Assembly (NCBI GenBank): GCA_977862235.1
Contig: OZ374559.1
Location: 2,604,001-2,668,000 of the forward strand
Direction: 5' to 3'
Source: Dudresnaya verticillata
Taxonomy: Eukaryota
DNA length: 64,000 bases
Part shown: positions 28,397 to 59,669 of the stretch, piece by piece
Position numbering within the stretch: the stretch's first letter is position 1
Layout: every line of letters starts with the position of its first letter
The notes under the pieces: generated by a model
The model's database searches: none
Told to the model about the DNA's origin: nothing
What the model saw: only the letters and a program-made list of their open reading frames with translations
Translations under genes and position numbers: made by a program

Positions 28397-30154
28397 CACC
28401 ACGGGGTAAAAGTAGGGCTATTTCTGTATTTTTGTACATTACTAATGTGTATATTCGTAGATTTGCGGCATTTCTCTAAATTTATGTATACCTTAACTAA
28501 ACAATTTGTACATTCTGCATATCTGAAATAGAGCTGCACCATCGCGTAATAGACATACTCTTCGAAAACTGAAGATATGTGTTATACAACGTGGTGTTGT
28601 CCGATACACATCTGCAAGTTTTCAACATTTGGGACTTGTGCAGAACTGACGCAGACCTGTGCAGGTCTATGTCAGTTCTGCACAAGTTGGGAAGGCAGTT
28701 CTGCTTTGACAAGATGCATTACTATATAATCTGCAACTGTAGAGATATATAAAGTACATAGTGGCAACATGTAAGTAACATGGCATTGGTTCCGGACTCA
28801 ATGGAGAGTCTGCTGCCGCAACCACGAGCGTGGGTGCGGCAGCAGACTCTCCTTCGAGCCCGGAACCGAGACGATGACGGCGCCGTCCCAAATGGGTGCG
28901 CGGTGGGGCGTCAGCAATCTCTTTTGGGGTGGTTGGGTGCTTGCCCCCGTTTCTCAACGTACAAAACGCACTCCTCCTCCTCCCCCTCATTTGGTAGCTG
29001 CTCAGCAAGGTACCTCTCTATCTCTACGCGCTGAACTCTCTCTCGCTCTGTCTGACCTGCGCGCGCGCTCGCTCTCTCCCCTCCATCTCGAGCCTGCGCA
29101 CCCGCTATAGACGCACGGAGCGCATCGCGCGCCCGCAGTTCTACCCAACGCCAGTCTCAAATGTTTCGCAGCCGCAGCCATCACCGCGGTGCCGCGGCAG
29201 TTCCCAACACCTCCTTAGCCCATGTGCACATGGCAACCCAGTCCCCTTCGGGGAGCACCTATTTTCACGAAAACACTCCACCTCCTGGTGGTATCTCTGT
29301 GCGCGAGGGTGAGATAAGTAAGCCTGTTGGAGAGGTTGCGCGAGTCGCAACGACGGCATCTTTGGTGCCAGTCCGAGACCGTGGACTACTCGGCCCGCAT
29401 CGAGTGATGATGCCTAGGCATCTTGCAGCTGCAAGATGATGCCCACGTTACTGTTACTGGCCAGTCGCCCGAGCGGAGCTCTCGAGTGCGTTGGACTATT
29501 GAACCCGCAGACATATTGTTGCAACAATACTGCGATTTATGATACCATATCCCGACCCACAAGCGCGTTTTGCCTTCCCTATCCAGGATACCAGTAAACC
29601 ATCGATTGCTCCAACCCGCCCACACCTTCCCAGCTGGGTGGCGGGTGAACGGGATGGCGGCAGGATGTGCGCGGTGGGGTGTACAGGTATGTCACCAGGA
29701 ACACTTGTCTCAAAACAGACCACTGTCAATAAAGTTCGACATGGTCTGCCAAGATCAAACGAAACATTGAAGACATGGAGACGGGCGGGCAGTGAGCACC
29801 ACCCGCGAGGCGCAAAGTTCGTCGCCAAAAGATGGTTTGGGGGAGGGAGGTGTTCTGTTATGGGAGAGTTGTTTACCCGCTGCAGAACGGCTGGTCGCAG
29901 CCACGAACAGCTTCATTGCACTGAGTGGTTATCAGCGCTACCAACGCACATTGTGAATGCTGTCACCGTCTCTCCGTCTAGGCATCGTTTGACCAGTACA
30001 AGAGCTCGAGATCTTGATTATTGTACAAATATAAACCTAGAGTTGAATAGAATGAGTGCAGTACGTACTTTTGAACATAATTCAACAGCACCTGTACAAG
30101 ATTCGAGGCTACATGACGACTGGAACAAAACTACACTTATGCACTGAGCATCTT

Positions 30155-33100
30155 TCATGCTGCGTGGCGCCTTCTGTAACCAGATGAAGTAACGTTTTCG
30201 TCCCAAACGACCCAGTTCGCGTTTGTCGGAGTCTGAGCACCACCAGTTGCCCGGCCGGAGAACCATGGGTATTTGAAAACGCATCCACCATCCCTGTAGA
30301 ACTGAAGTAAACCGTGTGTGTTGGATTCGAAGCGATCATTGCCTCTCTTCAAAAACACGGAATCCTGCCCATGTACACTCATCCCTTGGCTCAGAGCATA
30401 TGTTTTCGGAAGCCCTTTCCCTGCAGCCACTTTTTTTCCTCACTAGAAGGATAAGCGATGGCTAAATCTCCGCGGACGAACAAAAGGCTGTAGGGAGGTA
30501 CCAGAACCAGTCGCGAGGGTAGGGACTTTTGTAGTGCAGCTCGTGAGGTTGCACTCTTGATGTTCCCATAGATGTGCGAATGTGGCCAAATTCTCAGCGC
30601 AAAGGGCTGATATGCAGTGAAGAAGACACTAAGATTAAGCAACTCTGGAGGAACTGCATACTTCTTCAAAGGTTCAGTGGTCCACTGGTAGTCGAGGTGT
30701 TCACTTGGCCTGACATCTGAGGTTTCTTGATGAGAACTATGGGCGCTACTCCACCCTGGTTCCGGTTGCATGAACCTTGTATGCGGGCCCGTTTCCTTGA
30801 AAGAATCTCCTGTTTTCACCAGACGGGACCCTTGTAAAGGCATATACAGGGGGCGTTCCGCCGTCTGCACATCCATGTTTTCGAGGTATCGAGCGATGAA
30901 GCAGTCTAAACGACATTTCTCTGCGAACGCCATCGCGGAAGATGCACCCTCATCGGGAGCCGAGTTTTATGCTTCCTGTTGCATGTGCAATGATGAAAAC
31001 TCGAAAGTGCAACTTTGCAGGTACGTTTTGCCGGATCCTGTATGCCCTCCCTCTGATGTTGCATGAACTTTGTCTGTCAATAGATTACCGACAGCATTCC
31101 ATGCCCTGCTTCTGCCTCTTGTGCACTGATGCAGGTCGAACCTGCTTGTCGCGTACTCGAAAACGGTACTTATTCTAGACTTCAGCTTATTCCTAAATCC
31201 CCTGCCCAGTACCCCCGCATCGAGTGCGAAACCTGTGGACTCGAGTCTCCCGGACATGATCAGAAAATGTGTCTGGGCAGCAATACCCAGGTTGCCTAGC
31301 ACTTCTGGTCTTTCAACCGTATCTGCTGTTACGCCATTAACTTCGCAATCAGCCCGTCTCGTTTCTAGTATGTTCAGGTCTGTCTCGACAACATCACCCC
31401 AATTCATGAACTTGTAGAACCGCGACTCCTTCCGCACTGCAACTGGAAGGGAATCGACAGTGCGCGACCTCAGGTCATCGCGTGATGCCCAGTATCGTTC
31501 TGGTTCCATCATAATGCCATTCTTCGCTGCCCATTGACTTTGCATGTCATGATATTCCTGAAACATTTTAGTCTGCTCAGAAGGGCTTTGTCGCAATTCA
31601 ACCAGGACAGAACCAGCACTGACGTCTTCTAAGTTATCCAAGTCGTTGTGTTCACTTCCAGAGTCTTCTTCAATATCATCCCGTTCTTCCCTTGGCGCTA
31701 TCCGACGGCGTTTTGTCACTGCCAAAGGTGATTGGGGAGGGGATGGTGCATCATCGTCATACATGACAGAGTCAGTGAGCTTATAAGCTAATGAATTCAT
31801 TACGAGATGAGGGTCTGGGGAAGCACTTTAGCGTTTGCGATATTCGCCCTCCCCGCGCGAAGAATTGTTCAACTTGTGCGAATTACAATCTCGTGGAGCA
31901 ATACCAGGTTTGCTAGACCGGAGCTTTAGCCTGTCTGCTGCCTGTGAGGGGCCCCTCGGAGCTTCCACCTCTCCAGCTTTGATACCGCAGCGATGCGTGG
32001 CTGACCGGCCGCGATATCCACGCGACCGGTCCTGAACAGCCTCTCTTTGTCGCACGGCAACGGTCTGGATGTCGGAAAGTCGCTGCTCACCCAAATCAAC
32101 ATCAAGAGTTCTATTTGTCCCACTTCTTGGATGCGTTCTCAGCGGCCGCTGAGTCATTTCCCTTGTTCGATTCCACCGAAAATCAATATCTGAAGAGGCA
32201 TGCGCTTTTGACACTCTCCCGTCTACGGGACTTCCGCTTCTTGAAGGCCTTATGTCGTCAGAAAACGTACTACAGTTGTCCAGTGCTGTCCTTTCAGGCA
32301 ACTCCAAAGCCCTCTTAGAAAGATCACCGGACGAAGGATCCTTCACGTTGCGAAAACGGAAACTGCGTACTCCATTTGACATGTTTGGATCTGACCTCCT
32401 CCCAGTGCCAGCTGTGGATCCAATCTCATGAGGTGAAGCCTTGGCGCCACCATCTTCTTCAAGAGCTAAACCTGCTTTCTCTACAACTTTGGTACCTCTT
32501 TCTCTACCAGGCGATTTTCCAGGGGTATCGGTTTCGCAGTCCACTGCATCCTCTTCTACGACAGTTGCATCTGCGGGTGTGGCATCTTCGTCTTCAAGGT
32601 TGCTACTTTCTCCATTGTCAATTATCAAATGCAGACGTTGCAGTTTCTGAAGCTCTTCTTTAAGGGGAAGTTCTTCCAATGAACCACGCTTATAAGCTTG
32701 CTTGGGCTTTGGTTCGCTTTCCGATAAAAGTTTGGCGGCGCACTTCATCAATACCTTTTTGTCGCGCTCAAGAAATTCTGTTTGATGGGGCACATTAAGA
32801 CGCCGGGCCTTGGCTTTGTCCTGCAGAAACGTCCTTTTCCGGCACAGATGCGCTATTACCCCACAAAGACCCGCAGGGACCGTTTCTTTCTCGATCTTTG
32901 CCTGCCCACAATACCATACCGAATTAGGTACTGGTTCATTCCGTGAAGCGTGCTTCAAGCACCTGGTAGCTGATGCAGTCAGCAAGCGAACATATCTGAC
33001 GAAAGAAGAAATATCATCGGTATCCCACACAGTCCGCCTTTTTATCACGCCCACCTCGTAGAAATACCTGGAGTTAGCTGATAGTGGGCAAGCAGTCATG

Positions 33101-33594
33101 TCAACTGGCGCGCAGGCCAAAAACACGTCGTGAGTCAGCATCTTGTAAACCAAGCCACGGCCATTCTTCACCTCACAGAGAAAGCAAAAAGTGTTGAAGG
33201 CAGGCATGGTCTGAGTACCTAGCATCGAATGCGCTAACTTGAGGTACATTACTCTTGTCGAGCGCTGCAGATCACTAAAGTTTAGCGACGTGCTGCCATC
33301 ATCGCTTTCGTATAACATGCACTCCTTTTCTTTCCGTATTCCCTCGAACAACTTGTCTTTCCCCTTCCTGATAGAATCGGAACGAGTGAACCCATTGTCC
33401 TCAAGATAGCTGCGGAGATGAGTTACAATAAGTTTCTTGGCAGGGCCGACGGCATGGCTCGGCATGCGATTCATATCTTCAATTGCACGGAAATCCTTGA
33501 ATGTGTACACTCCGAAGTCGGGTTCGTCCCCGAGCAACGCGGACCTAGGTCCGAGCGGCCTTGGGTTCAGGAGATAACGTGGAACGATTCGCAA
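30155..33594 (-). pseudogene. Large (about 1100 aa) transposon cargo gene with C-terminal degenerate 2OG-Fe(II) dioxygenase-like domain
   Basis: ORFs 31828-33594, 30967-31800 and 30391-30933 are in one frame, separated by single TAA stops; frameshift at the T8 run near 30430; C-terminus is paralogous to 37766-38583. Confidence 0.7.
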
Positions 33595-34139
33595 GGTAGC
33601 TGCCTAGGATTTCTTCAAATGTGTTCGCGAGCCCACGCATTGGCTGTTAAACAAGCAGCAGTACAAGGCGAGGGCTGGTAGATGTGAAGAATAGCGATTC
33701 AGTGCTTGCCACAGCTCTGCCTAGCTCATTCGGTCCCTGTGTTTGTACCACAGTGTGGTCATGTGCGGGTAGAGAGAGCTGAAGAAAGTTCCAGCTCACT
33801 GATGCCTCCCGGAAGGTAGCAGCGGTCGCTCACATAGTGCTCTGATTTTGTCGAAATCTAGAGCGCTTCCCGAGCTAACCTGCGGTGTTCCTTTTATGGT
33901 AGATATTTTAACAATAAAATAGGATGTGAAACGTCCATGACGAGCTAGCTGGCAGCTGCGAGGAAGTACCACCCGAAGAGAGAGATGTATCCTGAAAGGC
34001 AGCTGGTAATTGGCTAAGTGTCGTATTGTTATCGGTCCTGACAGTTGTGGTAATGGTACCCCAAATACTTTACAGGACGCCAGTGGAAGAGCATATGATA
34101 GATTCGGCGGTGTAGTTTCGCAGCTCTTGCAGTGTCCAC

Positions 34140-35110
34140 AGCGAGAAACTTGGACGCGCTGATCACCACCCGCCGGGCCGTTTGTTTGCCGACGATTGCT
34201 TGCTACACGTCGAGTGACCCCACGCTCTACGACAGGCGCTTCGCATTTGCGACGATCGTCACTCGAGTGGGCCAAGGACTCGGGTATGACCTGGTCTACC
34301 ACCAAGTGCGCTATTATCCTTCCGACTCGACACCGAGGTCGTCCCAACTCGACCAAGTTCCAACTTGCGGGCCAGACCCTCTCCAACCCTGCGACGGCCT
34401 GCTATCTTGGCATACACATTTCCCCTGTTGGCCCCGGTGACCGTGCTGTCCTGCAACTGATAGCGTCTGCCAAGAATGTTCTTCGAGCACTGTCAAGCAT
34501 GGCATTTGTGTCTGCCAAGATGCCAGCAACGGCACTGTCACGCGGGCCATCGACAACCTCGACACCGAGTTCTTGCGCTTGTTCATATCGCAACGCACGC
34601 CCCGCATGCCCAGCTCGCGTCTCAAGAAGCTTCGAGCTCTGTTCCGCATCATCCGGCCGCTTCTGCGCCAGCGTATTCTACAAAGCAAGTTCGCGTCTTC
34701 CCTCCGCCGCACTGCGCGCTCCACGCACCTCCCGGAATCATGGCACGCTCGGCAAACTTTACTCGCTCTCCCGAAGCTCCGAAACCCGATGCTGGGCAAC
34801 GCGTTGGATCGCGCGCGATCCAGAACCCGACGAGCCCATCCACCCTGCATGCTGACTGCGTTGCCCAATGGCGCTCTGCATTTACCGGTCCGCGCAAAGC
34901 CGCAGTCCCCACCACACCACGCTTTGCCCCGGCGCTGCTACTCCCTGACCACCGTGACCGCCTGCTTGCTATCAGATGGCACTTATGCACCTTCGCAATC
35001 ACACCCCGTTGCCCCTACTCTCCTACGACGCTACGCGCCCATATGCCCTCGAGCTCACGAAGCTCTCGCACGACGCCCTCCAGCACTCGGACATCCGCTC
35101 AGTCTCATTA
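34140..35110 (+). mobile_element. Degraded LINE fragment nested in the giant transposon
   Basis: Near-identical to 6421-6975 over the shared part; RT tail motifs KCAIILPTRHRGR and YLGIHIS. Confidence 0.85.
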
Positions 35111-35869
35111 TCAAATAAATGAGCAGTTGCACTTCCAGCCCTCCAAAAGTGGAGACGTTGAGCAGCCTTAGCCGCGACTCGGCGACTGCGCTGGTGAGCA
35201 TCTCTTCTGCTTCCGGATGCCCCCACGGCAGCCAAGAGAGCCACACGGGGCCGGCCATTATGTACACGGTGAACAAGAAGGCGGACAAACTGTGCAACGG
35301 CTGCCTTGCGTCCCCGGCGGGATGCACGTCGCCACCGTGGGGTGGCCCCGTGAGAGCGCCGCTAGGGTCCACACCACCGCGGACATGGGCCGGAGCAGCA
35401 GGCCACACACGCGTGGTGGGCCGCGGCCCACCAAGCTGGCAGCTGGTGCGGAACGGCGGCAGCTGCTGCTGCTGCTGTTACTCCCCCTCAGAGGCCTGCA
35501 GCGCGACAAGCAGCGGCAGCACGAGGTGTAGGCCTGTGGTTGCCGTGCTTGTCGTTTGTACAAACGTTTGTTTGTTTGTTTGTTTTTCGTCTTACTTTTA
35601 TTTTGTGACGGTTATACACGGACGCGCGATGCAGCGCTCCATGAACTGTCAGCCCCGGCTGTAATGGCGTGAATCTATGAGCTGTATTTTCCGAGCTGCA
35701 TAATCTCCAAAAAATGGAAAACGAGGTTGTGTGTGAGAGCAAGCACGAAACCCCGCGCTTATGGGCGCCGGCGCTGTCCGAACAGCGGGCCACTCGTTCC
35801 TCCCATCAAGCACAATAGCAATCGGGGTTTTCAGCAACATCGACATGCAAGTGCGCACTTCTTCACTCT

Positions 35870-38583
35870 GTGCATTCCCGCCACAACGTGGTGGACGTTT
35901 CTCTGACCAGGCTCCCCCAGGAGCTCCGGGACCGTGGAAAGGCCCGCATCCTGCTCGCGATTCGCAACTTTCTCGCAAGCGTGTCAGTGATGGATGGGGT
36001 TGGGGAGGAGGAAATAGCCAGAAACGCTCGTCGCTTTCTGGACGAATTCAACCATGAGACTGGATTGCTCATCGGCTGCACGCTGGATGGAAACGTGCTT
36101 TCCTTTTCGTCTCTACCTTCAGACGAGGAAATTATGTGGTTCAATGTGGCCACTGTCTTCGCGAAGAAGGCGTATGTTGATGCCCTTTCCGTTTTCAGGG
36201 AACTATCAAGACTTCAGGGAGGGCCCCGTATTCCTATTTATGTGCTCGCGTGCAAAATGTTCTTGACGTTGCGTCCTATAGAAATGCAGAGTGTACTGAA
36301 AGTTCTATGGGGTCGCTCACAATGCATGCACGACATTGGAATGGAAGACGCGTTTATTTGGGATCCGGAGAGCTGCATGAGATTTGTATCTCACACAACC
36401 GCTCTGCTACATTTCGCAGACATGACTGCGGCGAGAATGGAGCTATCTAACTCTGTGCCTTCAGGTCTTACTGTGCCTCAAAAGTACAGCTTGAAAGTGC
36501 CCGCTCTGTCGAACTCGTCAACTTTGACAGCTGCAGTGATTACCATAATCGCTGTAATAACAGCTCAAGAGAGATATGATATCAGGACTGAGCAGAGCTA
36601 TTTGATGGAACATACCGCCGATATCGCTGCAGCTCTTGGAAAGGTTCTGCAAGAGAAAGTGAATGCTACCCTTAATCCACAGAACAAAGTAACGCTTGCT
36701 CTGTCTCTAGTTCTTACGGGCAGTGGATACCGTAGACCAGTCTTCACACGAGTTGCGGGAAGAAGTGAACGGAATGGCGATGCCAATGCCGCCGTGGCCG
36801 CCAGATACACCCATGTTTCCCAGCTCGATGCACTCCGTTCCGATAATGACGAAGGAAATGCCATAGGCATTCCTGCTCATCAAGTATCTGTATTGCATAC
36901 CAGCAGACCTGCAGGAGATCACCATGGAGGTTTCATTAATGAAGTTGTAGTGGATGAGGGCGATGGTAACGCGACTCCGACGGGAAATAATGCGAAGAGA
37001 CTTCGAATAGATAAGAAGATACCGGAATCTAAATCTTTAATCCTCTCCTCGATAAGTCGTGTGGATGGAAAAAGTCTTCAAATTGCGGCACTGGAGCCCG
37101 AGAGAAACCGAGCTGGGACCGCTGGTGAGAGCGCTACTCTTCGCGACCATAGTATCCACGCTGAGGCATCATACTGGGACAATGTGGGAACGTTCAGGCT
37201 GAAGAGGTACCCCACCAGGCGAGTCACAGCGAGCCGAGGCCGCGACGGTCCCAATGCGTTCCGTTCGTACCACGCGATGGAGGAGGAGGCAGCATCTCTA
37301 GACGAAATGGTTGCGCTGCCAGACGTCTTTATTGTGAATTCATCCATTCGACCTGCACTGAGAAACAGACGCTGTGCCGTGCTTGGAATTAGGGAGGAGT
37401 CCCCAACTTTGGACTTTCTGACGAAGGAAGACTTCATGCAAATCACAAAGAGCATAGAGATGTCTGCCGCGACTGCATTCAGATTGCAGTTTGATTCTTC
37501 AGCAAACGAGGCAGCATTGCGGCATCAGGCCGTTGGCCATCTGCAACAGATGGCTGATGCGCTCTATACCAAGGGCTACGCTGTGGACCGCAGTCGTTTA
37601 ACGAGAGGTGCAGATGTCGAACAAGCTGCACGAATTGACCGCATTATCAATTATATGGTCCCGCTGCAGGACATGAGGGAAGACACATTTTAGCACGTCA
37701 TCTGCACAGACCCCAATCGGAGCCTCGCTGAAATCAAGAAGGACTTTGCGAGAAAGCCCGATGAAATGGGTGCCTTAATGCGGTGGCAGACCACAACTAA
37801 GAACTTTTCGGACATGCTGTATGAAAAGGAGCACGACGCGCCCTGCGGTGATGCGAGAAGCGAAGGTGGGGTGTTTAGGGACAAAAGCATGATCGAGGCA
37901 TATCTGGCAAGGTACGTGGAGTTGCTCGGGCTTCAAGATACCACACAACGCCCATGTATATGCCTCTCCGTGGGTTGCAGCTCATATGTACAGGTCAAGA
38001 AAGCGCAAGGCAAACACCGCATTCAGACTATATGGTACCACACCCGGGGTGGCACCCATCTGGAATTGCGACGCCCGATGCCGGAGAGCCCCCGGCTCTG
38101 GTCAACCTCACGGTAATGTTCAGCGGAGAGCAGCCTTTTGCGATTCGGGTTTGGCCATATACCCACATTCGGCAGGCAACAAGAAACGCGGAGGAGAGGA
38201 AGAAGATATTGGAGACGACGCCGTCTTGTCTGGTAACGGTCCCTTCGTACAGCATATTGCTGTTACGAGGAGACATTATTCACGCTGGTTGCAGCGGAGT
38301 TGAGATGAAGGTCGCGTTTGGTACTGATGGTCTGCGTCCGTACCCGCTCACCCCATTGTCCGACCTGCAAGATAACCGAAAGGAGAAGCTCTTTTCTGTG
38401 CGAGTTGGGAGTCATCTATGCAATGTACGCGGTCATCTATCTTTCGTGCGTTCCGAAGGACTTCGGTACGACGCCATTTGGTCCGTCGCAGACATCGAAC
38501 TAGGGGAGGATAGCAAAAACCCCTGGCATCTCAATGACGCCAATTATGAAGTCGAGCACAGATCTGTACGTTTAATTCAATAA
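35870..38583 (+). pseudogene. Large (about 900 aa) cargo gene with C-terminal PhyH-like 2OG-Fe(II) dioxygenase domain
   Basis: ORF 35870-37693 continues in frame past one TAG into ORF 37766; 1-nt frameshift near 37950 joins ORF 37954-38583, which has QTPHSDY, IRVWPYTH, VPSYSILLLRGDIIHAG and NVRGH. Confidence 0.75.
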
Positions 38584-38609
38584 ACTAGCTACGCGTACAA
38601 GCGGGTAAA

Positions 38610-41499: not shown

Positions 41500-41580
41500 C
41501 CGGAAGTGATGATTCTTGTTTATTGTTGTTTTAGGTGGTCCTGTGCAGGCACCAAAGGCCCATTTGCAGGCGCACCGTTG
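41500..41580 (-). mobile_element. LINE 3'-UTR-only remnant
   Basis: gtgatgattcttgtttattgttgttttaggtggtcctgtgcaggcaccaaaggcccatttgcaggcgcaccg matches the reverse complement of about 7080-7152. Confidence 0.75.
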
Positions 41581-41676
41581 AAAGCGTAGTTCGGCTTCGC
41601 TCCGGCTTCCATCCCACAAATGGACTGCTCATGAGCAGTCCATATGCGGGAGTACACTCCAGTGCAGGATCCTGTG

Positions 41677-46400: not shown

Positions 46401-46670
46401 AATACGTCATCAGTTCGTGATGCAATCCACCTCTCTATAATGGAGATGCTTTGGAGATCCAGCACTCACTTCCATCGGGTGGTATTGGATGAAAATGACG
46501 TTAAGGATCGTGACGAGGCTCAGAAGAGAGATGATTTCTCATTTCATGATAGTGCTCCCCATGGAGCAAACTCATTGGTTCACCGCGGAATTCCTCGCGT
46601 AATGGACAATCGAAGGGTGAGTAGAAATCTCCTACCTGAAATAGATTTGTTCCGGAGAGCTGCAATATGA
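43414..46670 (+). pseudogene. Large hypothetical cargo gene (two overlapping ORFs, probable frameshift near 45105) with C-terminal SF2/SNF2-like motif remnants
   Basis: 584-aa and 521-aa ORFs overlap at a T run; HFVICTPEAI and FHRVVLDE motifs. Confidence 0.55.
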
Positions 46671-46904: not shown

Positions 46905-49900
46905 TCACCCTTGATGTGGTGGATAGCCCTTCTCTCGATCTAAAAGTCTAAATCTCGCTTCTAAAATGTGCTCCGGGTGCAGAACTGAACTACCATTTTC
47001 ATTTAGAACACAAGATGAAGTGCAGCTGTGTAAAACACCTACTCTTCGAGTACTACTGTCCAAGATTAGAACTGAAGGCCCTTTCTGGGGCTGACTCACA
47101 GAACATTCGTCTTGATTATGCACTACACGTATTGAGGCCTGCTCCAGTGCTTTTTCTTGTTCATTGTCCTGTTTACACGGAAGCACAAGTACACCTGCTC
47201 CATTGCCGCTGAATTGATCTCGATACAACGATTGTTGTCCTCCCTGTCCCCTATGTTCGAAGACCTGCACAACGTACCAATACGAGATCTCCTCAACGAT
47301 TTCAATACTGGAATTGTGGAGATACTGGCTGGAGAGTGTCGTTACAAACGGCCAGGATACTTTCCATCGGAATGCTTCATGCTTCAATTCCAGTGTCTGA
47401 ATGATGTCTCCGATGTAAATATCATATGAAGCAGGAAATCGATAAGAAGACAATCCAGTAAGTACAGCTCTGTCGGCCAAAGAAGAGATCGAATTCGGAT
47501 AAAGGGCTCGGAGGGTTTCTAGACCTTTTCGCCGAGCCGTAGAGAAGATGATGCGCCATTGTACGTCTGAAGCATCGTCAGATGTTCCCTTAATTCCCTC
47601 GAGGGAACTGCCCGTGGGGATTGACTGGTCAGTGGGGATTGACTGACCAGTCAATCCCCACGGGCAGTTCACAGTCTCTCCTGAACTTCTTTTCTGGGAG
47701 TGGGAAGTCGCTGTAATTCTCCAGCGATTGGTCTTCTCTTCACTTGCAGGGTGGATATTTATTACTGATCGTCCTTCTTCAGCCAAAAACTTGTCCACAG
47801 TTCCAATGGGGCCGAGTGCGTTCTTCAGAATTAGAATGTCATCCTTCTTCACTTTTCCCTTCCTATCAGCGTAGTATTCCGTTCCGAACAAGAGCCGAGT
47901 AAGGCTGAGAAAATACTTTTCTTCATCATCACGTTTATGAATTTTTTGCGACTCCCTCAACTCACTCACAAGGATGTTCAGCCTTCCTTGCCAATCGTTT
48001 ACTGCTGCAGCTGTCACGGCGTTTAGCTGCGGATTCGTGTTCTTAGATCTGGTAATTGTTCTTTTGAGGGCTTGGTGGGCTTTTTCACAAACCAGCTCGG
48101 AGACTCTGCGTATGTGACCGATATTTGGAAGGAGACTCATGCCGAGTTCCCTCAAACGATGTGCATTTGGGCGATCCAGTTGCGACCTGAGCTTTGATGC
48201 ATCTTCCCACCGTCTTTGAAGTATTGCACGGCGTTTAAACGCTTCTCTATCCCAGGAATGTTTTGTCCCGAGACGCCTTGACCATAATGCCCGCAGCTCA
48301 GCAACTTCCTCAGGAGGAAAGCACCAAATATCATTTGCATCTTCAAGATGCTTATTTATACTCCTCTGAGTTTTTTTCCAGGTTGTGCTGTCCGTAGTTT
48401 TCGTTGAACTGGGAAACCACTTTCGTTCCGTCGATTTCTGTTTTAGGCCAATACCACAGGTCAGAAACAATTCTTGAGAATGAACCGACAAGGGCGATTG
48501 CACCCAGGCATTTTTCGGACGGTATTGCGGCGCTTCTTTGCTGGGGATTGGTACCAGGGCTACAAGATGTAACTTCAACTGCCCTTAAAAACGCGTGTTC
48601 AGATACGAAAAGCAGCACATAAACCTCCGATAATGTCATCGAAAAGAGCTGCACTGCTCTCATATCAACGACTCGATTCTGTGTTGGGAGTCGAAGGTCT
48701 CGCATTGCTGAAACTGCAAACTTATCGAAAAGGCGCCGGTGGTGTGGTGTAGGCAAAACTTGCAACACCGCATTGATGCAGTCCTTCGCGTGTCCTGTTA
48801 GTAAAAGGTCCGGACCAATTAACAAACAAGCGTATGGGTCAAGGACACCAGGAACAACTGGCAAACCATGTAAAGGTTTTGGAATGGACGCTTGACATTC
48901 TTGGAAAGCTCTCGCCATGTCATGCAATACACAGCGGCCTTCCGCCCCGTTTTGCTTCATTCCCAGCGTCCTTAAAATCTCGTCATCAACCCCGCTTTTG
49001 CGTACCGAATCATGGCGGGACATATCCCTCCGCGACCCTTCCTGGCTCCCGTCCACATCCGAGTGCAGATGCCTGCAATTGACCGACATGTTCCACTTCC
49101 TAATTGTCACGTTCTGTATTTCTGCTCGTGTGAAGGTGCACATATGACAACAGGCATTTGCCGTATGTCCCAAAACATCAATGGCGGCATTTAGAGCAGG
49201 TGTGTCTCCAATACATCCTACAAGGTCTAGGAATATCTTGATGGCGTGTCCATCCGCATCATAGTCGTCGAAGCCTTCCGTCATTCCTTTCATGATATCT
49301 TCCTTTAACACCGAGAACACGACGTCAAAAACCATCCCAGGCGGTGTGAAACTTAAAACTCGCACAGATAAAGAACTGGATCGCTTCTGCGGCGGTAGGT
49401 TCAGACAAACCATATAGATACCATCCCCAGAACCGCTCCTCCCCTCCGGTATTCTGAACCCATCCCAAAAAAGGAGAAACTTGTAGACGAAATACTGTTT
49501 CCCATCTTCCAGTAATCCTCTACAAGGGACTTTTCGAGAACTTGACGATCCACGAAGCCCCTCTCTGACCTGCATAAGCCGTATCTCCGCAATCCCGTAC
49601 AGCTCTTGAGCTGTATCTCTGTTGTCATTTTCTGTATCAAAGATACTCACACATGCCTTCGTAAGGTCCTCGACAGTTTCAAATGGCATGTTCTGCACCG
49701 ATTTAACACAGAAGAATGACCTCGATGTTTCGGTAGGCTTTGTAAGAAACATGTGTACAATGATGATATGAAACACTTCATTACTGCAACGGCTGTTTCT
49801 TTTGCCACGAACTAATGTCAGGGTATCCCCCGTCCTACAGATGCCTCCTCCAATCTCATACTCGCCAATTGGTACATGCAGAATCTCAGCCATGGATTTC

Positions 49901-51306
49901 TCGACCTCGGTAAGTGCGTTAATTTCTTGCAATTGCGATATGCCAGTCACCGTGGATCTCCAAATTGCTCTAATCTCACCAGCAAGCACAGAGCGGTTCT
50001 TGTAATCTAGGTCTTCTCGTTGATAGATGAATTGCTCCAGAACTGTTTGCTTCACCCCGCCTGCACTGAAGCATACCACTTGAATTATATCCCCGACTTC
50101 TGCCCTGTACTGCGGCCCCTTGCATGGAATTGATCCCGCCTTGTGGAAAGCATCAACCTCGATGCATCTTAAATGGCCATAGAATCGGCTCCTGTTGGCA
50201 ATAAGGGGCCAATCGTCAACACAATCCCATGCCTTTATGCGAGGAGTCGTGGTCGCATCTGCAGCAGCTGTCGAACACATGTGTCGAAAAACTGGTCCGA
50301 AGCTCACATCCATTCTTGCGTACTCACTCACAGGAATTATCCGTACCAGTGAGGCGCCTCTACTACGCACAACAAGGGAGGATGGTACACCAGGACTGCG
50401 TGTGTTGACATCGTGCAGCTCTTCGACGGCCTTCGCTATCAGGTTTTCTTTCACGAAGCTAACAAAGTTCTTTTTGATCGTTGAGTAGGACGGCATGACT
50501 CGAGACATTTTCAAACTTTCATCGTAACCAAATTCAGATTGAAGTGCAATAGCTGGAGAGGATGTACCTTCTTTCTGCGATCTCTTCCACGGGGTAACCG
50601 CTGTTGAGTTGAAAAAGGTGCATAAATGAGAGAGTATGTTGTAATGTGACCTAGACATGGCCACGCTACCAGTAACGAGTAGGAAGGAGAGAAGTGTTTG
50701 CCACCTCAAGAGCGGAAAATATGAATTGGACAACCCGACTTCTGTTGATGGCCCGCCTAATACATTTCTGGCATCTCCTGGGATGGATTCCACAGTATCG
50801 TCGATATCTGTATTATATATATCGAGCTGTCTCTCTTCGACATCACTGTCGTTCTCAACACTTCCAATCTGCCCCACCCGTTCATCAAAGTGACCTTCAG
50901 GGTGCATCGATTCTGAAAACGGAAAATCTCCTTCGGGGATAGCCTCATGTTCATCATCAATCGACGAATTAGCTCCAGGATTATCAAAGTCGAACATGCC
51001 AGATTTGCCCCGGTGGTGAGTTTCATGCGATGAACTTCCGTCTGGTTCCAGTCCCAGTCCGCTAACCAATAACTGTCCTTGAGGCGCGGTGGCTCTTGTC
51101 ACTTCATTTCCATCGTCGGTGGCTCTCAGCTCCGGTAGCGCACGGACTCCATTGGGCATAGGATGATTGTCAGGTACAGCAAGACCAGTCTGTATTTGTC
51201 GCCTATGTGGCTGAATCACAGTCTTCGTATTGTACAGGCGGCCTTTGAAACTTCTTCTGTTCCACCCTCTGCGGTCTCTCTTCTTCATTACTTTCCTGAT
51301 ATACAC
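46905..51306 (-). CDS. CMC/EnSpm(TnpD)/Plavaka-like DDE transposase, split by a 1-nt frameshift in an A7 run near 48375
   Basis: LLFWDGF...SGDGIYMVCLNLPPQKR...TPPG, IGDTPALNAAIDVLGHTANACCHMC, PDLLLTG..K in ORF 48352-51306; PNAHRLREL...GHI...SELVCEKAHQALK in ORF 46905-48578. Confidence 0.8.
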
Positions 51307-51709
51307 AAGCGTTTCTGTACTTCTTCTGTACTTGTCAGCTCGGGTTAGAGGGAGCTGCGTTTCATACTTCAGTATTCATGATTTGCGGAGATCAGGTACC
51401 AAGACATTCCAAAACCGCAAACCGGCATCTCCCTTGACCTGCGTAGTACACGATTTCATTCTAATTTGAATTGGTTATACCCTAGCGAGTATAACGGAGC
51501 TCCGTGGAGCTTTTGTAGAAATACGAATATATTTCCCTCCATAATTAGTGGTGGGCTGGCGATTCCGAACACGACGAATCCGTACTCGGATTCGCCAGCT
51601 GGCGAGACCTGTACATGTATCCTGGTCCATGACCACACGTTTCGAGGCATACACTCCCTTGCGCATGTGGGTGCCCCCGATCTGAACGTGCGCGAAAAGC
51701 ACATTACGA

Positions 51710-53662
51710 GTGCATGGCTTCGAAGACAGGATCGCTTCCGAAGAGGCCTCACGAAGGTATCACGACCGTTTCGAGTGCTCCGCAAAAGGGCGCGGCTCAG
51801 AACGCCCCAATATCTCACTACAGTTCTCCACTCGCGTGGCAAAACTCCAAATCGCCGTACGTTCACTGAGGTTCTCAAAACCTTCATTTCAGTGGAAGTC
51901 GACGAACGTTGAGAGCTGTATACAAGCGGTGCTTGTGAAAATAGCACACATTTGTGTGTGGATCATGACCACCGGAAATGGAATCACTGCAGATCCCGAC
52001 CGAACCGGGCTAATACTGGTAGAAGAGAGATCTAGTCCTCGTCATAGGGGAAATTCAGTAACACAGGGGCAGATGCATGGCGGGGGTTGCTTGCAGTCTA
52101 GTGCTGACAGAGATGATTTGGATGGCTGTCACATGCGCGGATCGCCGCGGCAAAGTTCACGGAAGCGTGCATCCGGGGAACAAGTCGAGGCTGGACTTGG
52201 AACCAGTGTCGCAGTGCCAAGGCCGGGATCTTTCATAGAGGTTTCATGGCTTCTCGTCGAAGGAGACACAGACTCCTCATGTGATGAAGATGACAAAGAT
52301 TGGATTCAGTCGAAGGCCACAGCAATCAATGACGCACCTGAGCATGGCTCATCAGCTCAACGGTCTTGGTGGCCTGCCCTAGTTGATGAAGGAAATATGC
52401 CATACACCCGAAATCTGACATACACCACATCTCCTTCAGCATGTGGTGAACATGATCTTGAAGATTACGTTTACCGCGATGTGTTCTTCTTCGGAAACCA
52501 GAACTTGCGAAATGGGCCTGGGCAACACTACGGGATGGTCGCAGTATGGCGCGAGTGTCGATGGGAGCCGGTGCCAACAGAAGACTCTGAGGTTCACGGA
52601 AGTGCCGCCAGCTTAGGAACGCGTGAAATTCGAGCTGCTCTCGAAACGCTTTCGATGAAAGTTGTGAAGCTGGAATCGTCTATGTTAGGAATGAAGCAAG
52701 TACTTGCCGGCTTGGCTACGTTGGACTCCCCTCATTTTCTTAATCGTGTCCGAGCAGAGGTTACATCTCGTATGTTCGGTTTTGTTCGTACTTTCTTTGT
52801 GAGCAGTATGGTCAAGCGCACTCAGCAGAATTCAAGAAAAACCGTACAGGTAACCGAAGGCTCAGCGGTAACCCATTGCGTGGTCAGGACAAAAGGTACT
52901 CTTTGTACAATGGAAGACTTTCTTGAGATCACGTCCTTCATAAGATCAAGACGTGGAGACAGATTAACTGTGAGGCCTTCTGTATTCGACTCCATATTTG
53001 TCAACATGCGTACAAGAAAGAAGATTACAGTTGTTTTCGACTCTCTAGCCGATCTGTGTAACATATTGGAAGTTGATGATCATCTCAGGGAAATTATGCA
53101 ACTGCAGTTGCCTGAAATGCGTGCATTTGGAGCATCGCAGCAACACAGTGTTGATCCACTTCACATTACTGGTTGCTCCTTTCTAGAACACAAATCTGTA
53201 GTCGGATCGTCAAGAGAATGCGCGCTTTTGGTACTTCCAGGAAGAGGGCACAAGAGTTTGTGCAGGTCCGACCTCATGGAAATTCCCATTCTGTACCGGC
53301 CGTTCTCTAAGTGGAATGGGAGAGAGCTCCGGTTTGAAAAGAATTTTGAATACAGGTCTGTTTCACCTGCTTGGGTGAAGGAGACGGTGCTAAAATGCCT
53401 TCAAAAAGCAGGCTTCGAATCAGCGACAAGCCTAGATGCAACCCTTCCGATGTGTTCTGCTATAACAGACCAGCAAGAGATCCGTTTGGAATGGGATAAA
53501 GTCCCAAATCAGAGCTACAGCTCTGCCTCTCCACATTTAGGTACTAGAGACATCATGGGATACATTGTGTGTTGCGTTCCGCGAACGACAATCCGATGTG
53601 AGAAGACAATTCAGTGCCTTCGGAAGCTCTTATCCAACACCGACAAGTTATTTCTAATTTGA
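51710..53662 (+). CDS. Hypothetical cargo protein with possible Tudor/PWWP-like domain and coiled coil (likely start near 51965)
   Basis: 650-aa ORF; PRPGSFIEVSW...SWWPALV, followed by IRAALETLSMKVVKLESSM. Confidence 0.6.
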   Translation: MHGFEDRIASEEASRRYHDRFECSAKGRGSERPNISLQFSTRVAKLQIAVRSLRFSKPSFQWKSTNVESCIQAVLVKIAHICVWIMTTGNGITADPDRTGLILVEERSSPRHRGNSVTQGQMHGGGCLQSSADRDDLDGCHMRGSPRQSSRKRASGEQVEAGLGTSVAVPRPGSFIEVSWLLVEGDTDSSCDEDDKDWIQSKATAINDAPEHGSSAQRSWWPALVDEGNMPYTRNLTYTTSPSACGEHDLEDYVYRDVFFFGNQNLRNGPGQHYGMVAVWRECRWEPVPTEDSEVHGSAASLGTREIRAALETLSMKVVKLESSMLGMKQVLAGLATLDSPHFLNRVRAEVTSRMFGFVRTFFVSSMVKRTQQNSRKTVQVTEGSAVTHCVVRTKGTLCTMEDFLEITSFIRSRRGDRLTVRPSVFDSIFVNMRTRKKITVVFDSLADLCNILEVDDHLREIMQLQLPEMRAFGASQQHSVDPLHITGCSFLEHKSVVGSSRECALLVLPGRGHKSLCRSDLMEIPILYRPFSKWNGRELRFEKNFEYRSVSPAWVKETVLKCLQKAGFESATSLDATLPMCSAITDQQEIRLEWDKVPNQSYSSASPHLGTRDIMGYIVCCVPRTTIRCEKTIQCLRKLLSNTDKLFLI

Positions 53663-53724
53663 AAGAGCTATACTGTACCCTGTTTACTTTCATGTTCAAC
53701 ATCTTTAACATCGAGGTTTGGATC

Positions 53725-55821
53725 CTAAATGTTTGGCTCGTCATCAAACTCAGAGTCGCTGAGATTAACATCGCTTGAATTTTGGTCAGTGTCGGCTCCG
53801 CCTTGGCAACGGCTTTGAAATAGCTGTTCCCTCCTCTTGTTCTCTTCTGCCAATTTCTTCTTCTCCAAGTGTTCATTGTGCTCTTTCCGGGAGATCTTAA
53901 ATCGTTCTTTCAGCTTCCTTCTCAATACTGAAGGGTCTAGAATTAACAACCCGGCATGTGATTCCTCCTCTATCTCCGGGAGATTTCCACTATCGCGATT
54001 GTCGCTACGCGTATTGCGTCTTTCCGCTGCAACATGCAACACAATGTCTCCCATCAAGCTATACTCCACGTTCGTCAATGGATCTCCCAGAGTCTTCTGT
54101 ACGACACCACGAAATGCCAAGGCAATTTCATGCAGCATGAGGAATGAGGAGGGGCTGGATCTAAGCACGGAGGCATGGCTTTCCGCTCTGCAAGCTTCAA
54201 TTAAAAAGCGCAGGGCGACAACATGAAGGGACACATATTCGAGCTTCGTCCAAGTGTCTTCTACGCTGCTATCAGCATTGCATCGGCTCGAATTCCTCTT
54301 CTGCTTCTTGGGGCTATCTTCCTGGAACGTGACTTGGTACCAGACCGTACAGGTCAAAGACGGGAAGCTTTCCTTCATGCTTTCGAAAGCAGCCTCGTTT
54401 TCTTCGTCAATCTTCGCCAATGTCGCCTCATTATCACCTGCTTTGCTTGCAATTGCCTTTCCCACAGCTTCCCGCATATTTATCTCCGACCACATCATCT
54501 CCTTCTCCTTTTCGCTATATGAAGGTATGCTGATGCCGTAGTCTTGGTTTACTTCACACTTGTTCAGCGCAAGGTATTGCAAAATAAACCCGAACGTCTT
54601 GAATACACATTTTAGTGAATGTAGACGGCCGGAAGACAGGGTGTATGCGACTTGCGTTCGCCCTGTTCGAACAGCAGCAGAGAAATTCCTTCTGTCAGAA
54701 CAATACGCTGTCGTTTTGTCGTCATTTCGGTCAAGTACCACAGCTCCCAATCCATCCTCATCCCTGATTCTGCATCCAACTTTCGCTACTTCCACATCAT
54801 TGAATACCTCGTCCACATGACGACCAATCGCCCTCTTCTCAGCCGCTCTCACTTTGCTTTGCTGAGAGCGGCTCAGTTCGTTCCACAGCTCAATGTACTG
54901 AGAAGGGCTCAAAGTATCGGACAGCTTCGGCTCTACGTTGGGATGTCTGCAACCAAGTGAGATGTTGTTCTCCGTGCTTCGAGCAGTCTCCAGGAAGAAG
55001 ATGTATAGCCATGTAGGTATGGTGGGGGAGGAAGAGGTGAGACCATCACCTGTAGTGTTCCTGGTCGTGAACAAATTTCCGACTCGCGCAGACCAAAGCA
55101 ACTTCAGCACAGCCTCACGTTGAATAGAGCTGTGTGCCCTTCCAAGACGTGTACTAAAAAACGTCTTCCTGCTAAACTTTTTCTTCGCAGTGAGGTAGGC
55201 AGCCAGAGCGCTGCAGCCATCTTCTCTCTGTTGTTGATCAGTATCAATACGAAGCTCGCACCGTGGCCAAGAAGATGAAGAAAGGTTTGACAAAAACCTC
55301 TTCGTCAGGGTTTGTAGTAAAGACCAGGTCTGCCTACCTCTTGAGAGAATGAGCCCCATTTCAGCATCTATGTCCCCACCCTCTTCATCATTCTCTTCCC
55401 TTGAAACTACCTTGCGACTATGGAGGGATTTCGCGAAGTTTGGTGGGGTATCCTTCACCACTTGCTTCATGCTTGAGAGAATATCGTGTTTGAAACACTG
55501 CAGCTCTTCTTTGTTGGCCCTGACGATCTCTTCCATTTGCTGTCTCATTATTGACAAGAACTGTAGTTCGGTGTGTCCCATTCCAGAAAAGCTGTGAACA
55601 AGAGCAGCTTCTGAGCTTGCCCCAGGACCTGTTCTCGCAGCATCACTGGGTCTTGAGGCATGTATGGACCTTTCTTGACACCCGGAAAATGTCGCAGATT
55701 GTTCATGGGGTGTAGAATCTGGCGGTTGGGCTTCTGGACGATCGTCCAGATGACTACCCACCGAGACACGAAACTGTGACTCCGGGATATCCGGAACGTG
55801 ATTGACGGCCGGCGCGTTCAT
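53725..55821 (-). CDS. Hypothetical cargo protein, 698 aa
   Basis: Long intact ATG-initiated ORF convergent with 51710-53662; charged C-terminal tail; no family recognised. Confidence 0.65.
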   Translation of the reverse strand: MNAPAVNHVPDIPESQFRVSVGSHLDDRPEAQPPDSTPHEQSATFSGCQERSIHASRPSDAARTGPGASSEAALVHSFSGMGHTELQFLSIMRQQMEEIVRANKEELQCFKHDILSSMKQVVKDTPPNFAKSLHSRKVVSREENDEEGGDIDAEMGLILSRGRQTWSLLQTLTKRFLSNLSSSSWPRCELRIDTDQQQREDGCSALAAYLTAKKKFSRKTFFSTRLGRAHSSIQREAVLKLLWSARVGNLFTTRNTTGDGLTSSSPTIPTWLYIFFLETARSTENNISLGCRHPNVEPKLSDTLSPSQYIELWNELSRSQQSKVRAAEKRAIGRHVDEVFNDVEVAKVGCRIRDEDGLGAVVLDRNDDKTTAYCSDRRNFSAAVRTGRTQVAYTLSSGRLHSLKCVFKTFGFILQYLALNKCEVNQDYGISIPSYSEKEKEMMWSEINMREAVGKAIASKAGDNEATLAKIDEENEAAFESMKESFPSLTCTVWYQVTFQEDSPKKQKRNSSRCNADSSVEDTWTKLEYVSLHVVALRFLIEACRAESHASVLRSSPSSFLMLHEIALAFRGVVQKTLGDPLTNVEYSLMGDIVLHVAAERRNTRSDNRDSGNLPEIEEESHAGLLILDPSVLRRKLKERFKISRKEHNEHLEKKKLAEENKRREQLFQSRCQGGADTDQNSSDVNLSDSEFDDEPNI

Positions 55822-57654
55822 TTGAAATTGGATAAACGGAATTAAGTAGACCGGTGCGAGATGTAGACCTGATTTCTCGGTACGGCTGCAACCGTGAACC
55901 TTTCATAAACTGGAAGCTTGACGTAAGTAGATGATGAGTTTTCCCGTGCAGTTGCAAACATCTTAAGATGAAATGTAATCAGCTCACCGGCCGTTCAGAG
56001 TATATATACTCTGATGTGTACATCTGCACCTGTTTAATGGGCGCGCCCCCCGAATTCTACCTCGTCATAACCCCTCCGAAGAGATGCACTCGGTTGCACA
56101 CAGTTTCGGTCGAGCGTTACACTTCACGGGAACAGACCTGTTCACGACATTCTGCAGCTCCATTATCATTCCAGTAAGATACATAAGAATATTGTCCAAC
56201 ATTTCCAGAGTAATTTTACATGTTTTCTAGAAACGTCAAGATCAGTTCGGAGACATTTTGGAGCTGTACAATGCATATGTTAGGGTTTTGGGACTCAGGG
56301 CGCCTTATTTTGAAACGGTGTCATCTTTTGGCGATGGAAGCAGAACTGCGCGCAACGTGTTTGTTTGCTGTGGGATGTACCCTGTCGAGTGTTTACAGGT
56401 CATTATCAGTATGTCGCGATATCCTGATAGTGATTGCGATATCGGTAGCCCCCGACCTTTGATTGGGCGCTGGCATCTCGCTTGGGCTCATTCCTCGTGC
56501 AGATCTTGGGTCACCCAGCGAGCTCGAGCTGCAGAAAACACGCTTGCGGGTGCGATGCTTTCAGCAAGAGCGAAGAACAGGGTCCATATCCGAGGGGATT
56601 CAATTCTCTTTACGTCACTGGCTGTAACGCGATGCCCGTTCTTCGATAAGCTAAAAGCATTGGACCGGGCCGAGCGGAAGGGGCAGTACCGGTACTCCGG
56701 TCGACGGGAGCGCTTTCGTCTTCTGTCCCGCCAAAAAGCGAATGATTGCCACTTCCTTCGGAATGAATCCTGCACAGAACGGGTATAAAGTTTCTGCGCA
56801 GGATCCATTTGGGGCTCTAGTGACCGTGCTAGGAAAGATACCCCCAACATGTTTCACTATTTCGTTCTTTCCAGGTTCACCGCCGCTAAAGTTCCAGCCG
56901 TCCTACCTCCACCGCTACCTTCACATCCTGCCAACCTTCATGCCTCTCTCCGCTTCCATCAAGAAGATCAAGAACCATCGTTTCCGGACCCACAGCGACC
57001 AGCCGGAGCACATTCGCAGGTCTCATATGGTCCGGGCAAGCACAAGGTTGTCTCTTCAGACCCATTTATAGTCGCGGGCAAGTACCAGGTAAGTCACAAA
57101 ACCGGCAAGAGATGTCGCGAACGGTCAAGGAGTGTGTTCGCGTACAGAAGCCAGCAGAACTCCATTCAAAAGGACAAGGTCGTACCCTGTCGACAGGAAT
57201 CATTTCGGAAACAGCTCCGAATGTATCTCTCTAACCGAGCTGCACTTTACAAAGGTAAGTACAAACTCACTGCTTTATTCATTTAAGGTGTTTCACTGGA
57301 AGGTAACTCTAACCCGAATAACTCTCTATTTCCGATGTCGATTTTACTCCGCTTATGTTAAGGAGTCACGGATTGCAACTTGCGAGGAGATATCTCTGTT
57401 CGACTTAGACTAATTCGTTTACATCATTCCTAGGTAGACTCATTATCTACAGCTGTAGCTGCAAAAGCTTCAGTTGATTGTTAATTATCTTCCTCTCGCA
57501 AGGGTAGCTATAGCCCTACTGGGAATGCAAATAAAGGATAATGTTCGTGCATACGCACGTAAGTGTTGTCCTATGCGATGTATTGCCTGTTTGCAGGTAG
57601 TACCGTGTTAGCATGTTGTAGGTGCGCACAGACCTCGCCACGCCGCGGCCCCGA

Positions 57655-58275
57655 TCGGTGCGCATGACTCCGAAAGGTATGCGGACGTGGGTGTTCGGTG
57701 TCGGCGCGCGGGTGGACGAAAGGTGTGTTGGTAAAGGTCTCAGCTTTTCGGTGCGCATAACTCCGAAAGCTATGCGGACGTGGGTGTTCGGTGTCGGCGC
57801 GCGGGTGGACGGAAGGTGTGTTGGTAAAGGTCTCAGCTTGTCGGTGCGCATGAGGGAGAAGGGTGAACGGCCGTGGGTGTTCGGTGTTCGGCGCGCGGGT
57901 GGACGGAAGGTGTGTTGATACAGATCTCAGCTCGTCCGTGCGCGTGAGGGCGCAGGGTGTGCGGGCGTGGGCTTTCGATGTTCGGCGCGCGGGTGGGTGG
58001 AAGATGTTTTGATACAGATCTCAGCTTGTCGGTGCGCATGAGGGCGCAGGATGTGCGGGCGTGGGTGTTCGGTGCTCGGCGCGCGGGTGGGCGGAAGATG
58101 TTTTGGTACAGATCTCAGCTCGTCTGTGCGCATGAGGGCGCAGGATGTGCGGGCGTGGGTGTTCGGTGCTCTGCGCGCGGGGTGGAAGGAGGATGTGTTG
58201 GTACATATCTCAGCTTTTCAGTGCGCATGACGCCGCAAGGTGTGCGGGCGTGGGTGTTCGGTGTTCGGCGCTCGG
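57655..58275. repeat. Subterminal tandem array, about 6.6 copies of a 93-95-bp unit
   Basis: Units start at 57655, 57748, 57841, 57935, 58029, 58123 and 58218 (tcggtgcgcatg...gtgggtgttcggtg.tcggcgcgcgggtgg...tctcagct). Confidence 0.93.
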
Positions 58276-58505
58276 GTTGAAACGAGTCGTGCAGATGCAC
58301 TTCGTTATTGTGCAGTGCATCGAACCCAGCTGGGTATGGGAGTGAAAGGCGCTGGCGCTGTGCATTAGGAGAATGAAAAAACGGTTAATAGACCTCATTT
58401 TTTCTCTTTTTTAGACAATCAGAAACTGTAAAAAATATATATTCCGCATATCCAGAACAGTGTTTCAAAATAGACATTCAGGTGCCATTTTTACCCCGTG
58501 GTGAT

Positions 58506-59631: not shown

Positions 59632-59669
59632 TGCACACGCAGAAATACTCCAGCGTATGCATGGGGCCG

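Follow-up and report, generated by a model that had tools for sequence, protein, structure and literature searches.

A 30.1-kb Plavaka-like/EnSpm DNA transposon copy with accessory genes, likely inserted as a single unit into a Gypsy integrase of Dudresnaya verticillata

In a 64,000-nucleotide stretch of Dudresnaya verticillata DNA (assembly GCA_977862235.1, contig OZ374559.1, positions 2,604,001 to 2,668,000; hereafter the window, to which coordinates refer), the integrase of a Gypsy retrotransposon is interrupted by a DNA element of 30,107 bp (28397-58503). The element is best explained, with a probability of roughly 0.8, as one giant copy of a cut-and-paste, Plavaka-like/EnSpm transposon that likely jumped as a single 30-kb unit, with genes that were probably intact at that time and have since decayed.

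The ends of the element can be placed to the base. Positions 28397-28411 (+) are the reverse complement of 58489-58503 (-) over 15 nt (CACCACGGGGTAAAA), with divergence directly after, and these terminal inverted repeats (TIRs) are bounded by the two AT copies of a target site duplication (TSD) at 28395-28396 and 58504-58505. Exact occurrences of the 15-mer in the window are limited to the two element ends; three further sites carry three mismatches, against a chance expectation of 1.4 for all sites with up to three mismatches. A scan of the window for CAC-initial inverted pairs (perfect over 15 bp, more than 5 kb apart, with a 2-3-nt flank match) returned four pairs, and the three besides the element's own sit within long inverted paralog matches or matches between long interspersed nuclear elements (LINEs). 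Excision of the element together with 2 nt leaves the Gypsy pol frame, followed from 26322, open over 1,066 codons, while excision with 0, 1, 3 or 4 nt leads to a stop at codon 704-724. The first-pass annotation, made by a model from the sequence alone, had claimed 15-bp TIRs with a duplicated AT and a Gypsy integrase restored by deleting the element and one AT, and both claims were confirmed. It had also listed subterminal repeats among the known CMC traits; a subterminal tandem array of 94 bp x 6.6 (87% matches) was found at 57655-58277 (+), at the right end only. Near the left end there are two imperfect palindromes (28634-28687 and 28779-28876).

The element carries a gene for a DDE transposase of about 1,450 amino acids (46905-51375, -; first Met at 51288) with one frameshift near 48360-48400. 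Two overlapping minus-strand open reading frames (ORFs; 51375-48352 and 48584-46905) were assigned to this single frameshifted gene because they align end to end with the 1,400-amino acid proteins P0001 and P0002. Relatives were numerous (706 at E<=1e-3 with phmmer), and residue conservation was read by aligning the window protein to 60 relatives of at least 1,100 amino acids, found among the 150 matches listed of these 706. The DDE residues, called catalytic by position and conservation, are D638 (49464; 60/61 sequences), D724 (49206; 61/61) and E1092 (48086; 60/61), and the second D is followed by a C(2)C motif (C743 and C746, both 61/61). A His at position 857 is present in 60 of the 61 sequences and is replaced by Leu in the window copy (H857L, 48807). 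With a frameshift and the loss of this conserved His, the present copy is dead and incapable of making active transposase.

In the published sources consulted, CMC elements are defined by CA..TG termini, a 2-5-bp TSD and the motifs C(2)C and H(3-4)H (PMC12730594). The CAC..GTG ends and the 2-bp AT TSD, seen at one insertion only, fit the 5'-CA..TG-3' and 2-5-bp parts of this definition, and together with DDE and C(2)C they bear out the earlier classification of the element as CMC-type, here as EnSpm/Plavaka-like. The termini CACCA..TGGTG correspond neither to TGT..ACA (PlavakaA) nor to CATCA..TGATG (PlavakaB). Since H(3-4)H and the termini of fungal PlavakaA and PlavakaB are not matched, the element was filed as CMC-like/Plavaka-like and not as a strict member, and its transposase belongs, as judged from sequence, to the Plavaka-like/EnSpm group. 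Atlas ranked first (0.92) a cluster in which 34% of the members are Plavaka; this match stays under the recognition threshold of the tool and serves as a lead only. Searches with the transposase profile against PDB sequences returned nothing significant, and relatives were found in none of 24 candidate stretches of viral contigs. Two perfect palindromes with 29-bp arms lie within element ORFs (38667-38724 and 47605-47670), the latter with an 18-bp duplication that keeps the transposase frame; three shuffled sequences contained only 0-1 palindromes whose arms reached 10 or more, and the two palindromes are probably template-switch lesions or read artefacts.

The age of the insertion can be approached through the interrupted retrotransposon, a chromodomain-bearing Gypsy with reverse transcriptase (RT), RNase H, integrase and chromodomain between two long terminal repeats (LTRs). 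The part from the 5' LTR to the interrupted integrase lies at 24462-28396 (+), and the remaining integrase, the chromodomain and the 3' LTR lie at 58506-59948 (+). The LTRs, each of 279 bp (24462-24740 and 59670-59948), show four differences, corresponding to 1.4% divergence (95% interval 0.4-3.6%), and the element, which interrupts the Gypsy, is the younger of the two. At half the LTR divergence, the coding DNA of the element (17.6 kb) should contain 4.1-5.3 in-frame stops and the Gypsy 1.2-1.5; three and one, respectively, were observed. When frameshifts are included, the element has seven lesions in 17.6 kb and the Gypsy two in 4.8 kb, where the frameshifts of genes A and C (see below) are inferred and that of the Gypsy may be programmed. 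Since the density of stops and lesions matches the age of the host Gypsy, the genes of the element need not have been broken when it jumped, and the element was probably intact at that time. A large LINE fragment within the element (34143-35118, +; 5'- and 3'-truncated) shows four frame changes over 970 bp and 3.7% divergence (20 of 545 sites) from a sibling located at 6428-6972, and is therefore probably an older passenger that was carried along; no TSD was found for this fragment. Decay and the older LINE, as read with a coarse clock and from a single copy, thus support entry as one unit. The earlier statement that all 30 kb entered together is accordingly favoured by a single TIR pair and by decay that matches the age of the Gypsy, both of which are indirect evidence.

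The Gypsy copy has some features of its own. The flanks of the retrotransposon (24458-24461 and 59949-59952) read ATTA and ATTG, alike in three of four bases, and form an imperfect TSD. Its RT region contains a perfect 30-bp in-frame tandem duplication (27058-27117), and a TAG lies in frame at 26319-26321, with a frame change around 25794-25875.

A different account of the damage is that the element belongs to a non-autonomous family, with lesions that predate the move and mobilisation in trans by the transposase of another copy. The old LINE debris, H857L and the roughly four frameshifts counted over the 17.6 kb that is coding would suit this account, and in the giant elements of Ectocarpus transposases are often pseudogenised and nested insertions fixed (PMC12477816). 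However, the stop counts and the lesion densities given above require no decay before insertion, and accessory genes D and E of the same copy are fully open, so that mobilisation in trans of an already broken element is considered unlikely.

Genes D and E occupy the right part of the element, next to the transposase gene. Gene D (51686-53662, +) is a 658-codon frame, divergent from the transposase, that encodes a coiled coil and an alpha/beta part, and gene E (53725-55902, -) is a 725-codon frame kept in related elements. Metagenome contigs were scanned with a 30-sequence transposase alignment, yielding 65 loci, and direct matches among these were found to window D in six and to window E in two. 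Profiles built from locus ORFs alone match window D at 4.2e-20 and window E at 3.3e-28; by profile, D is present in 14 of the 65 loci (11 used for building) and E in 10 (five used for building). Considering loci with a match start at least 1.5 kb in, D is divergent and upstream of the transposase in 13/14 loci of assembly JADWZK01 and in 0/6 loci of other assemblies, with L061 (match from residue 625) omitted from the latter. Locus L001 opens with CACCGGGGGGAAAAA, which agrees with the window TIR at 12 of 15 positions, followed by E, D and the transposase in the order and orientation of the window. This order, together with the locus profiles, makes TIR-E-D-transposase a conserved module, and D and E are inferred, from their conserved position beside related transposases, to be long-standing accessory genes of the sublineage. 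In a midpoint-rooted FastTree phylogeny of 99 core sequences, in which all but the window protein are unnamed relatives, that protein and the nine included D-bearing loci group together (support 0.994).

The AlphaFold model of D has a mean pLDDT of 53; Foldseek returned nothing for this model at E<=0.001, and VIA-align matched the coiled coil alone (best Z 5.4). PDB sequence searches with the D and E profiles gave nothing significant. A stretch of D at about 52230-52450 that is Tudor-like in its sequence pattern was rejected because it is absent from relatives and unstructured in the model, and paralogy of D and E was likewise rejected (hhalign E 0.73).

In the left part of the element, genes A and B are ancient full-length paralogs. 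Gene A (30391-33603, -; about 1,070 codons) is one frame with two TAA codons and a probable frameshift near 30400, and gene B (35819-38583, +; about 920 codons) has one TAG, one frameshift (at about 37955) and a C-terminal domain resembling 2-oxoglutarate (2OG) oxygenases. The similarity of A and B in the N-terminal and middle parts exceeds that of 300 of 300 shuffles, and their C-terminal domains are 38% identical. The C-terminus of B retains H-x-D and a distal His, while A has Arg and Ile instead and has lost two of the three iron ligands; because these residues replace metal ligands, A is a predicted pseudo-enzyme. The C-terminal domain of A and B can be aligned with the C-terminus of a protein of locus L058 that was labelled PAG3-like by its architecture (hhalign E 8.6e-6, probability 83%; BLAST 7e-6), whereas the N-termini of A and B show no match to the ParB-like ones of the PAG3-like pair (hhalign E 0.4, with two sequences per side). 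Searches for homologues of the N-terminal ORF of B and of its oxygenase domain, which were word-based and length-limited, returned none, relatives of the oxygenase were not found in prokaryote genomes (0 of 28), and PDB sequence searches with B and with the oxygenase profile gave nothing significant. The element has no Pfam match to TET/JBP. Stop-codon readthrough as an explanation for the split ORFs was rejected, because the frames are interrupted by TAA, TAA and TAG and by frameshifts as well.

By analogy with TET/JBP cargo of fungal elements and with red-algal PAG3, B could have an anti-silencing role. As an Fe/2OG dioxygenase, B would in that case counter silencing by oxidising DNA bases or chromatin marks on the element, and A would be its non-catalytic partner; this is the weakest part of the proposed explanation, and its odds are put slightly short of even.

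Gene C (43411-46670, +) consists of two overlapping ORFs of 585 and 530 amino acids, convergent with the transposase, which are probably one frameshifted gene. Relatives or domains were absent in all searches with C, and Atlas gave nothing usable. In Bostrychia, giant Plavaka elements carry a cassette in which PAG2 combines an N6-adenine methylase with SET and PAG3 combines an N-terminal ParB-like domain with a C-terminal 2OG-oxygenase (bioRxiv 10.1101/2025.02.11.637652). Among the 65 loci, a convergent N6-methylase gene was found in four (L041, L045, L055 and L058), and C lies in the position that this gene occupies there, convergent with and downstream of the transposase. In L045 and L058 the methylase gene is followed by a gene with a DGxHR motif, which we take to be a ParB motif, an arrangement that would correspond to PAG2/PAG3 as in Bostrychia. 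The element itself seems to have no such cassette. Its scanned ORFs have no Pfam match to methylase or SET, and a profile of the four methylase genes gave none below E 0.2; DPPY-type and other methylase motifs are absent from the six frames of the window and present in 3/3 control proteins, and DGxHR is absent from the same six frames and present in 5/5 locus proteins. The possibility that C is a diverged PAG2 was rejected (BLAST E 2.9). In the tree of 99 core sequences the four methylase-bearing loci fall in the half opposite the window protein, and since an E-like gene is also found in L052, on that other side of the tree, E is possibly a homologue of PAG1. The methylase genes of L041 (6630-9590), L045 (7421-10324) and L058 (4364-7276) also have an N-terminal DGxHR, without a SET match, and in this they resemble the ParB-methylase gene carried by Sola in Ectocarpus (PMC12477816).

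With the ends, the AT duplication, the transposase family and the gene inventory established, a sequence of events can be proposed. By the established EnSpm/CMC chemistry, the DDE transposase would have bound the 15-bp TIRs, with the 94-bp subterminal array as its probable binding sites helping this interaction, and would have cut the element out and reinserted it at a 2-nt staggered cut. A greater distance between the TIRs is believed to lower the efficiency of transposition. D and E would, to judge from synteny, act as regular accessory proteins, and the LINE pieces and a GatA fragment (described below) would be passengers acquired by earlier copies.

Several observations weigh against the proposed explanation of the element. 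For its timing, the LTR clock is built on just four differences (95% 0.4-3.6%), the analysis is of a single copy of the element, and sibling copies were not found among the 65 loci, for which blastn gives only transposase patches of 67-75%. For its classification, the window transposase has no Pfam match even at E 10, and its relatives match Plavaka (PF18759) in 4/37 cases at 13-20 bits (cutoff 26.3) and Transposase_21 in 2/37, all below cutoff; moreover, in place of the expected H(3-4)H before E, H1067-x3-E1071 is found in 60/61 sequences (window region 48149-48161), where Glu may replace a zinc ligand in this sampled group. For its cargo, JADWZK01 supplies 51 of the 65 loci and every D-bearing locus. 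For A, the N-terminal part of B, and C, every search came back without relatives, so that it is only their long frames that mark them as regular cargo. Finally, the oxygenase call is made from motifs and one weak alignment, with no match to the domain in Pfam, NCBIfam and PDB searches and a pLDDT of 35 for the AlphaFold model of the B domain.

Giant multi-ORF elements of related type have been published from several groups. In Bostrychia moritziana, Plavaka elements of 17.4-19.1 kb carry PAG1-3 (bioRxiv 10.1101/2025.02.11.637652), and like these the window element is a giant EnSpm-classed TIR element with accessory genes, 2OG-oxygenase-like cargo, internal inverted-repeat clusters and a degenerate copy, whose transposase has relatives bearing a PAG2/PAG3-type cassette. 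Unlike them, it is 30.1 kb long, shows no N6-methylase/SET gene or ParB-like N-terminus, has its oxygenase gene duplicated with one copy predicted dead, and carries five accessory genes plus the GatA fragment; its transposase also differs from those of the Bostrychia-type cassette loci in lying opposite the four methylase-bearing loci in the tree. Chondrus crispus EnSpm families (Kojima et al. 2013, cited in PMC6431247) have sizes of 16-20 kb and 4-5 ORFs instead of 1-2, and so resemble the window element as red-algal, EnSpm-type and multi-ORF elements. Plavaka occurs across Archaeplastida (PMC13519894). Fungal PlavakaA, PlavakaB and TET-bearing EnSpm elements share with the element a DDE transposase with C(2)C, a 2-bp TSD and, as predicted for the element, dioxygenase cargo, and the TET-bearing EnSpm elements also share CAC..GTG termini; in contrast to these fungal systems, the element has HxxxE, termini other than those of PlavakaA/B and no TET/JBP, and the fungal EnSpm TSD is of 3 bp (PMC12730594). 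In Ectocarpus, EnSpm elements reach 15.2 kb and KDZ elements 30.3 kb, with nested insertions, and a Chlamydomonas KDZ element reaches 31.7 kb; these giants of about 30 kb resemble the window element in carrying nested transposable elements, accessory genes and a pseudogenised transposase, but as KDZ elements they have a different transposase (PMC12477816).

The placing of the host among algae by the first-pass annotation is probable. Its suggestion of a possibly undescribed kind of element is not supported, given the EnSpm/Plavaka giants with several ORFs (16-20 kb) and the algal KDZ elements (about 30 kb) already published: the kind is known from algae, and what differs is a size about half again that of published relatives, with different passenger genes. 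It could further be argued that the family, or a near relative, has already been curated (as Repbase Chondrus EnSpm or in Bostrychia Supplemental Table 6), so that size and cargo would not be new either. Plavaka and PAG-associated elements have been curated in Gracilaria chilensis and Kappaphycus alvarezii, among others, with highly mobile accessory genes (bioRxiv 10.1101/2025.02.11.637652), and Chondrus elements have 4-5 ORFs (PMC6431247). The published EnSpm/Plavaka sizes that were found are of 15-20 kb, however, and the methylase/SET gene and the ParB domain of the known cassette are missing here, so that prior curation is regarded as improbable; a literature search for a 30-kb EnSpm/Plavaka element or for the gene set of this one found none, where Repbase and the bioRxiv supplements (Table 6, Figs 11-13) could hold one. 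An arrangement in which a shorter TIR-E-D-transposase element of about 12-15 kb was joined by later unrelated DNA, or in which the contig is mis-assembled, agrees with counterparts in related loci for the right half only (the left half, with A, B, GatA and C, having just the weak 2OG match), but is very improbable given a left block without internal TIR or long TSD at its borders, two outer junctions that agree base for base with one insertion, the resemblance of A and B to PAG3-type cargo, the position of C in place of the methylase gene, and the need to fit all changes within about 0.7% divergence.

Taking the element as a single giant insertion, a precisely bounded 30-kb copy in a young Gypsy provides a dated example of this group beyond the approximately 20 kb found in the literature. 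It is possible, with the odds leaning against it, that the element represents an undescribed algal Plavaka-like sublineage, autonomous at 28-30 kb and thus bigger than any CMC-type element found in the literature, in which D and E, on either side of the transposase promoter, and an active/dead 2OG pair with a new N-terminal domain replace the methylase/ParB cassette and provide methylase-free anti-silencing. The element also shows that algal Plavaka-like transposons can exchange their accessory cassette, and the second gene set (D, E, C and the duplicated oxygenase, with no methylase) offers new candidates for escape from silencing, an open question in red seaweeds.

The remaining content of the element includes passengers and one doubtful gene. 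An ORF pair of 272 and 157 amino acids with one stop between (38589-39881, +) contains one of the 29-bp-arm palindromes; relatives were searched for this pair and none were found. A captured internal fragment of GatA (Glu-tRNA amidotransferase A; approximately residues 200-430 of 484) lies at 39792-40487 (-), is intronless and is missing both ends. The claim of a transposase plus about six large non-transposase genes is therefore a fair count, comprising five accessory genes, the GatA fragment and the doubtful ORF, with the qualification that of the six large genes only D and E are whole, whereas A, B, C and the transposase gene are in pieces. The first-pass annotation had overlooked that the copy is dead, that A and B are paralogs, and that LINE pieces and a piece of a host gene are nested in it. 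Nested insertions were rejected as the cause of the size, as LINE sequence (about 1.3 kb) and GatA (0.7 kb) leave about 28 kb. A degenerate internal repeat cluster (41992-43009) holds four copies of GCATGAGCTGCAAT, a motif that is present there in both orientations and nowhere else in the window; 0.69 matches are expected, for a motif that was picked after seeing the sequence. An Rfam search gave no match.

Two smaller LINE pieces were also found: a 72-bp 3' tail (41506-41577, -) that is 96% identical to 7080-7151, and a 5'-truncated LINE (41677-41968, -) with CCTGTG, a probable TSD, on both sides, situated within an internal repeat unit. An inversion that would connect this tail (from 41577) with the body of the large LINE fragment (35112) was rejected since the intervening 107 bp are absent. 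Members of the LINE family share a conserved 3' tail, about 70 bp long, that ends in ATCAC/TTCAC without poly(A), and at least seven tails occur in the 64 kb (1881-1959, 7080-7151, 14566-14636, 19098-19168, 41506-41577, 41677-41746 and 60968-61037).

The genes of the window are intron-poor with approximately 50% GC, which, together with the transposase group and a nearby Hint-domain gene, makes a florideophyte red alga the likely host. Outside the element, an inverted pair of ORFs of about 940 amino acids (7877-10687, - and 21213-24083, +) shows 85-98% DNA identity, with a 12-bp tandem array in one of them, and has no significant match to a Pfam family. The ORF at 723-1892 (+) encodes four PG_binding_1 repeats on a 261-bp tandem unit, which is unusual for a eukaryotic region. 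A single-ORF gene at 16634-18535 (+) encodes a Hint module with a weak fasciclin match; Hint-domain genes have been reported from red algae and also from many other protists (PMC2362128).

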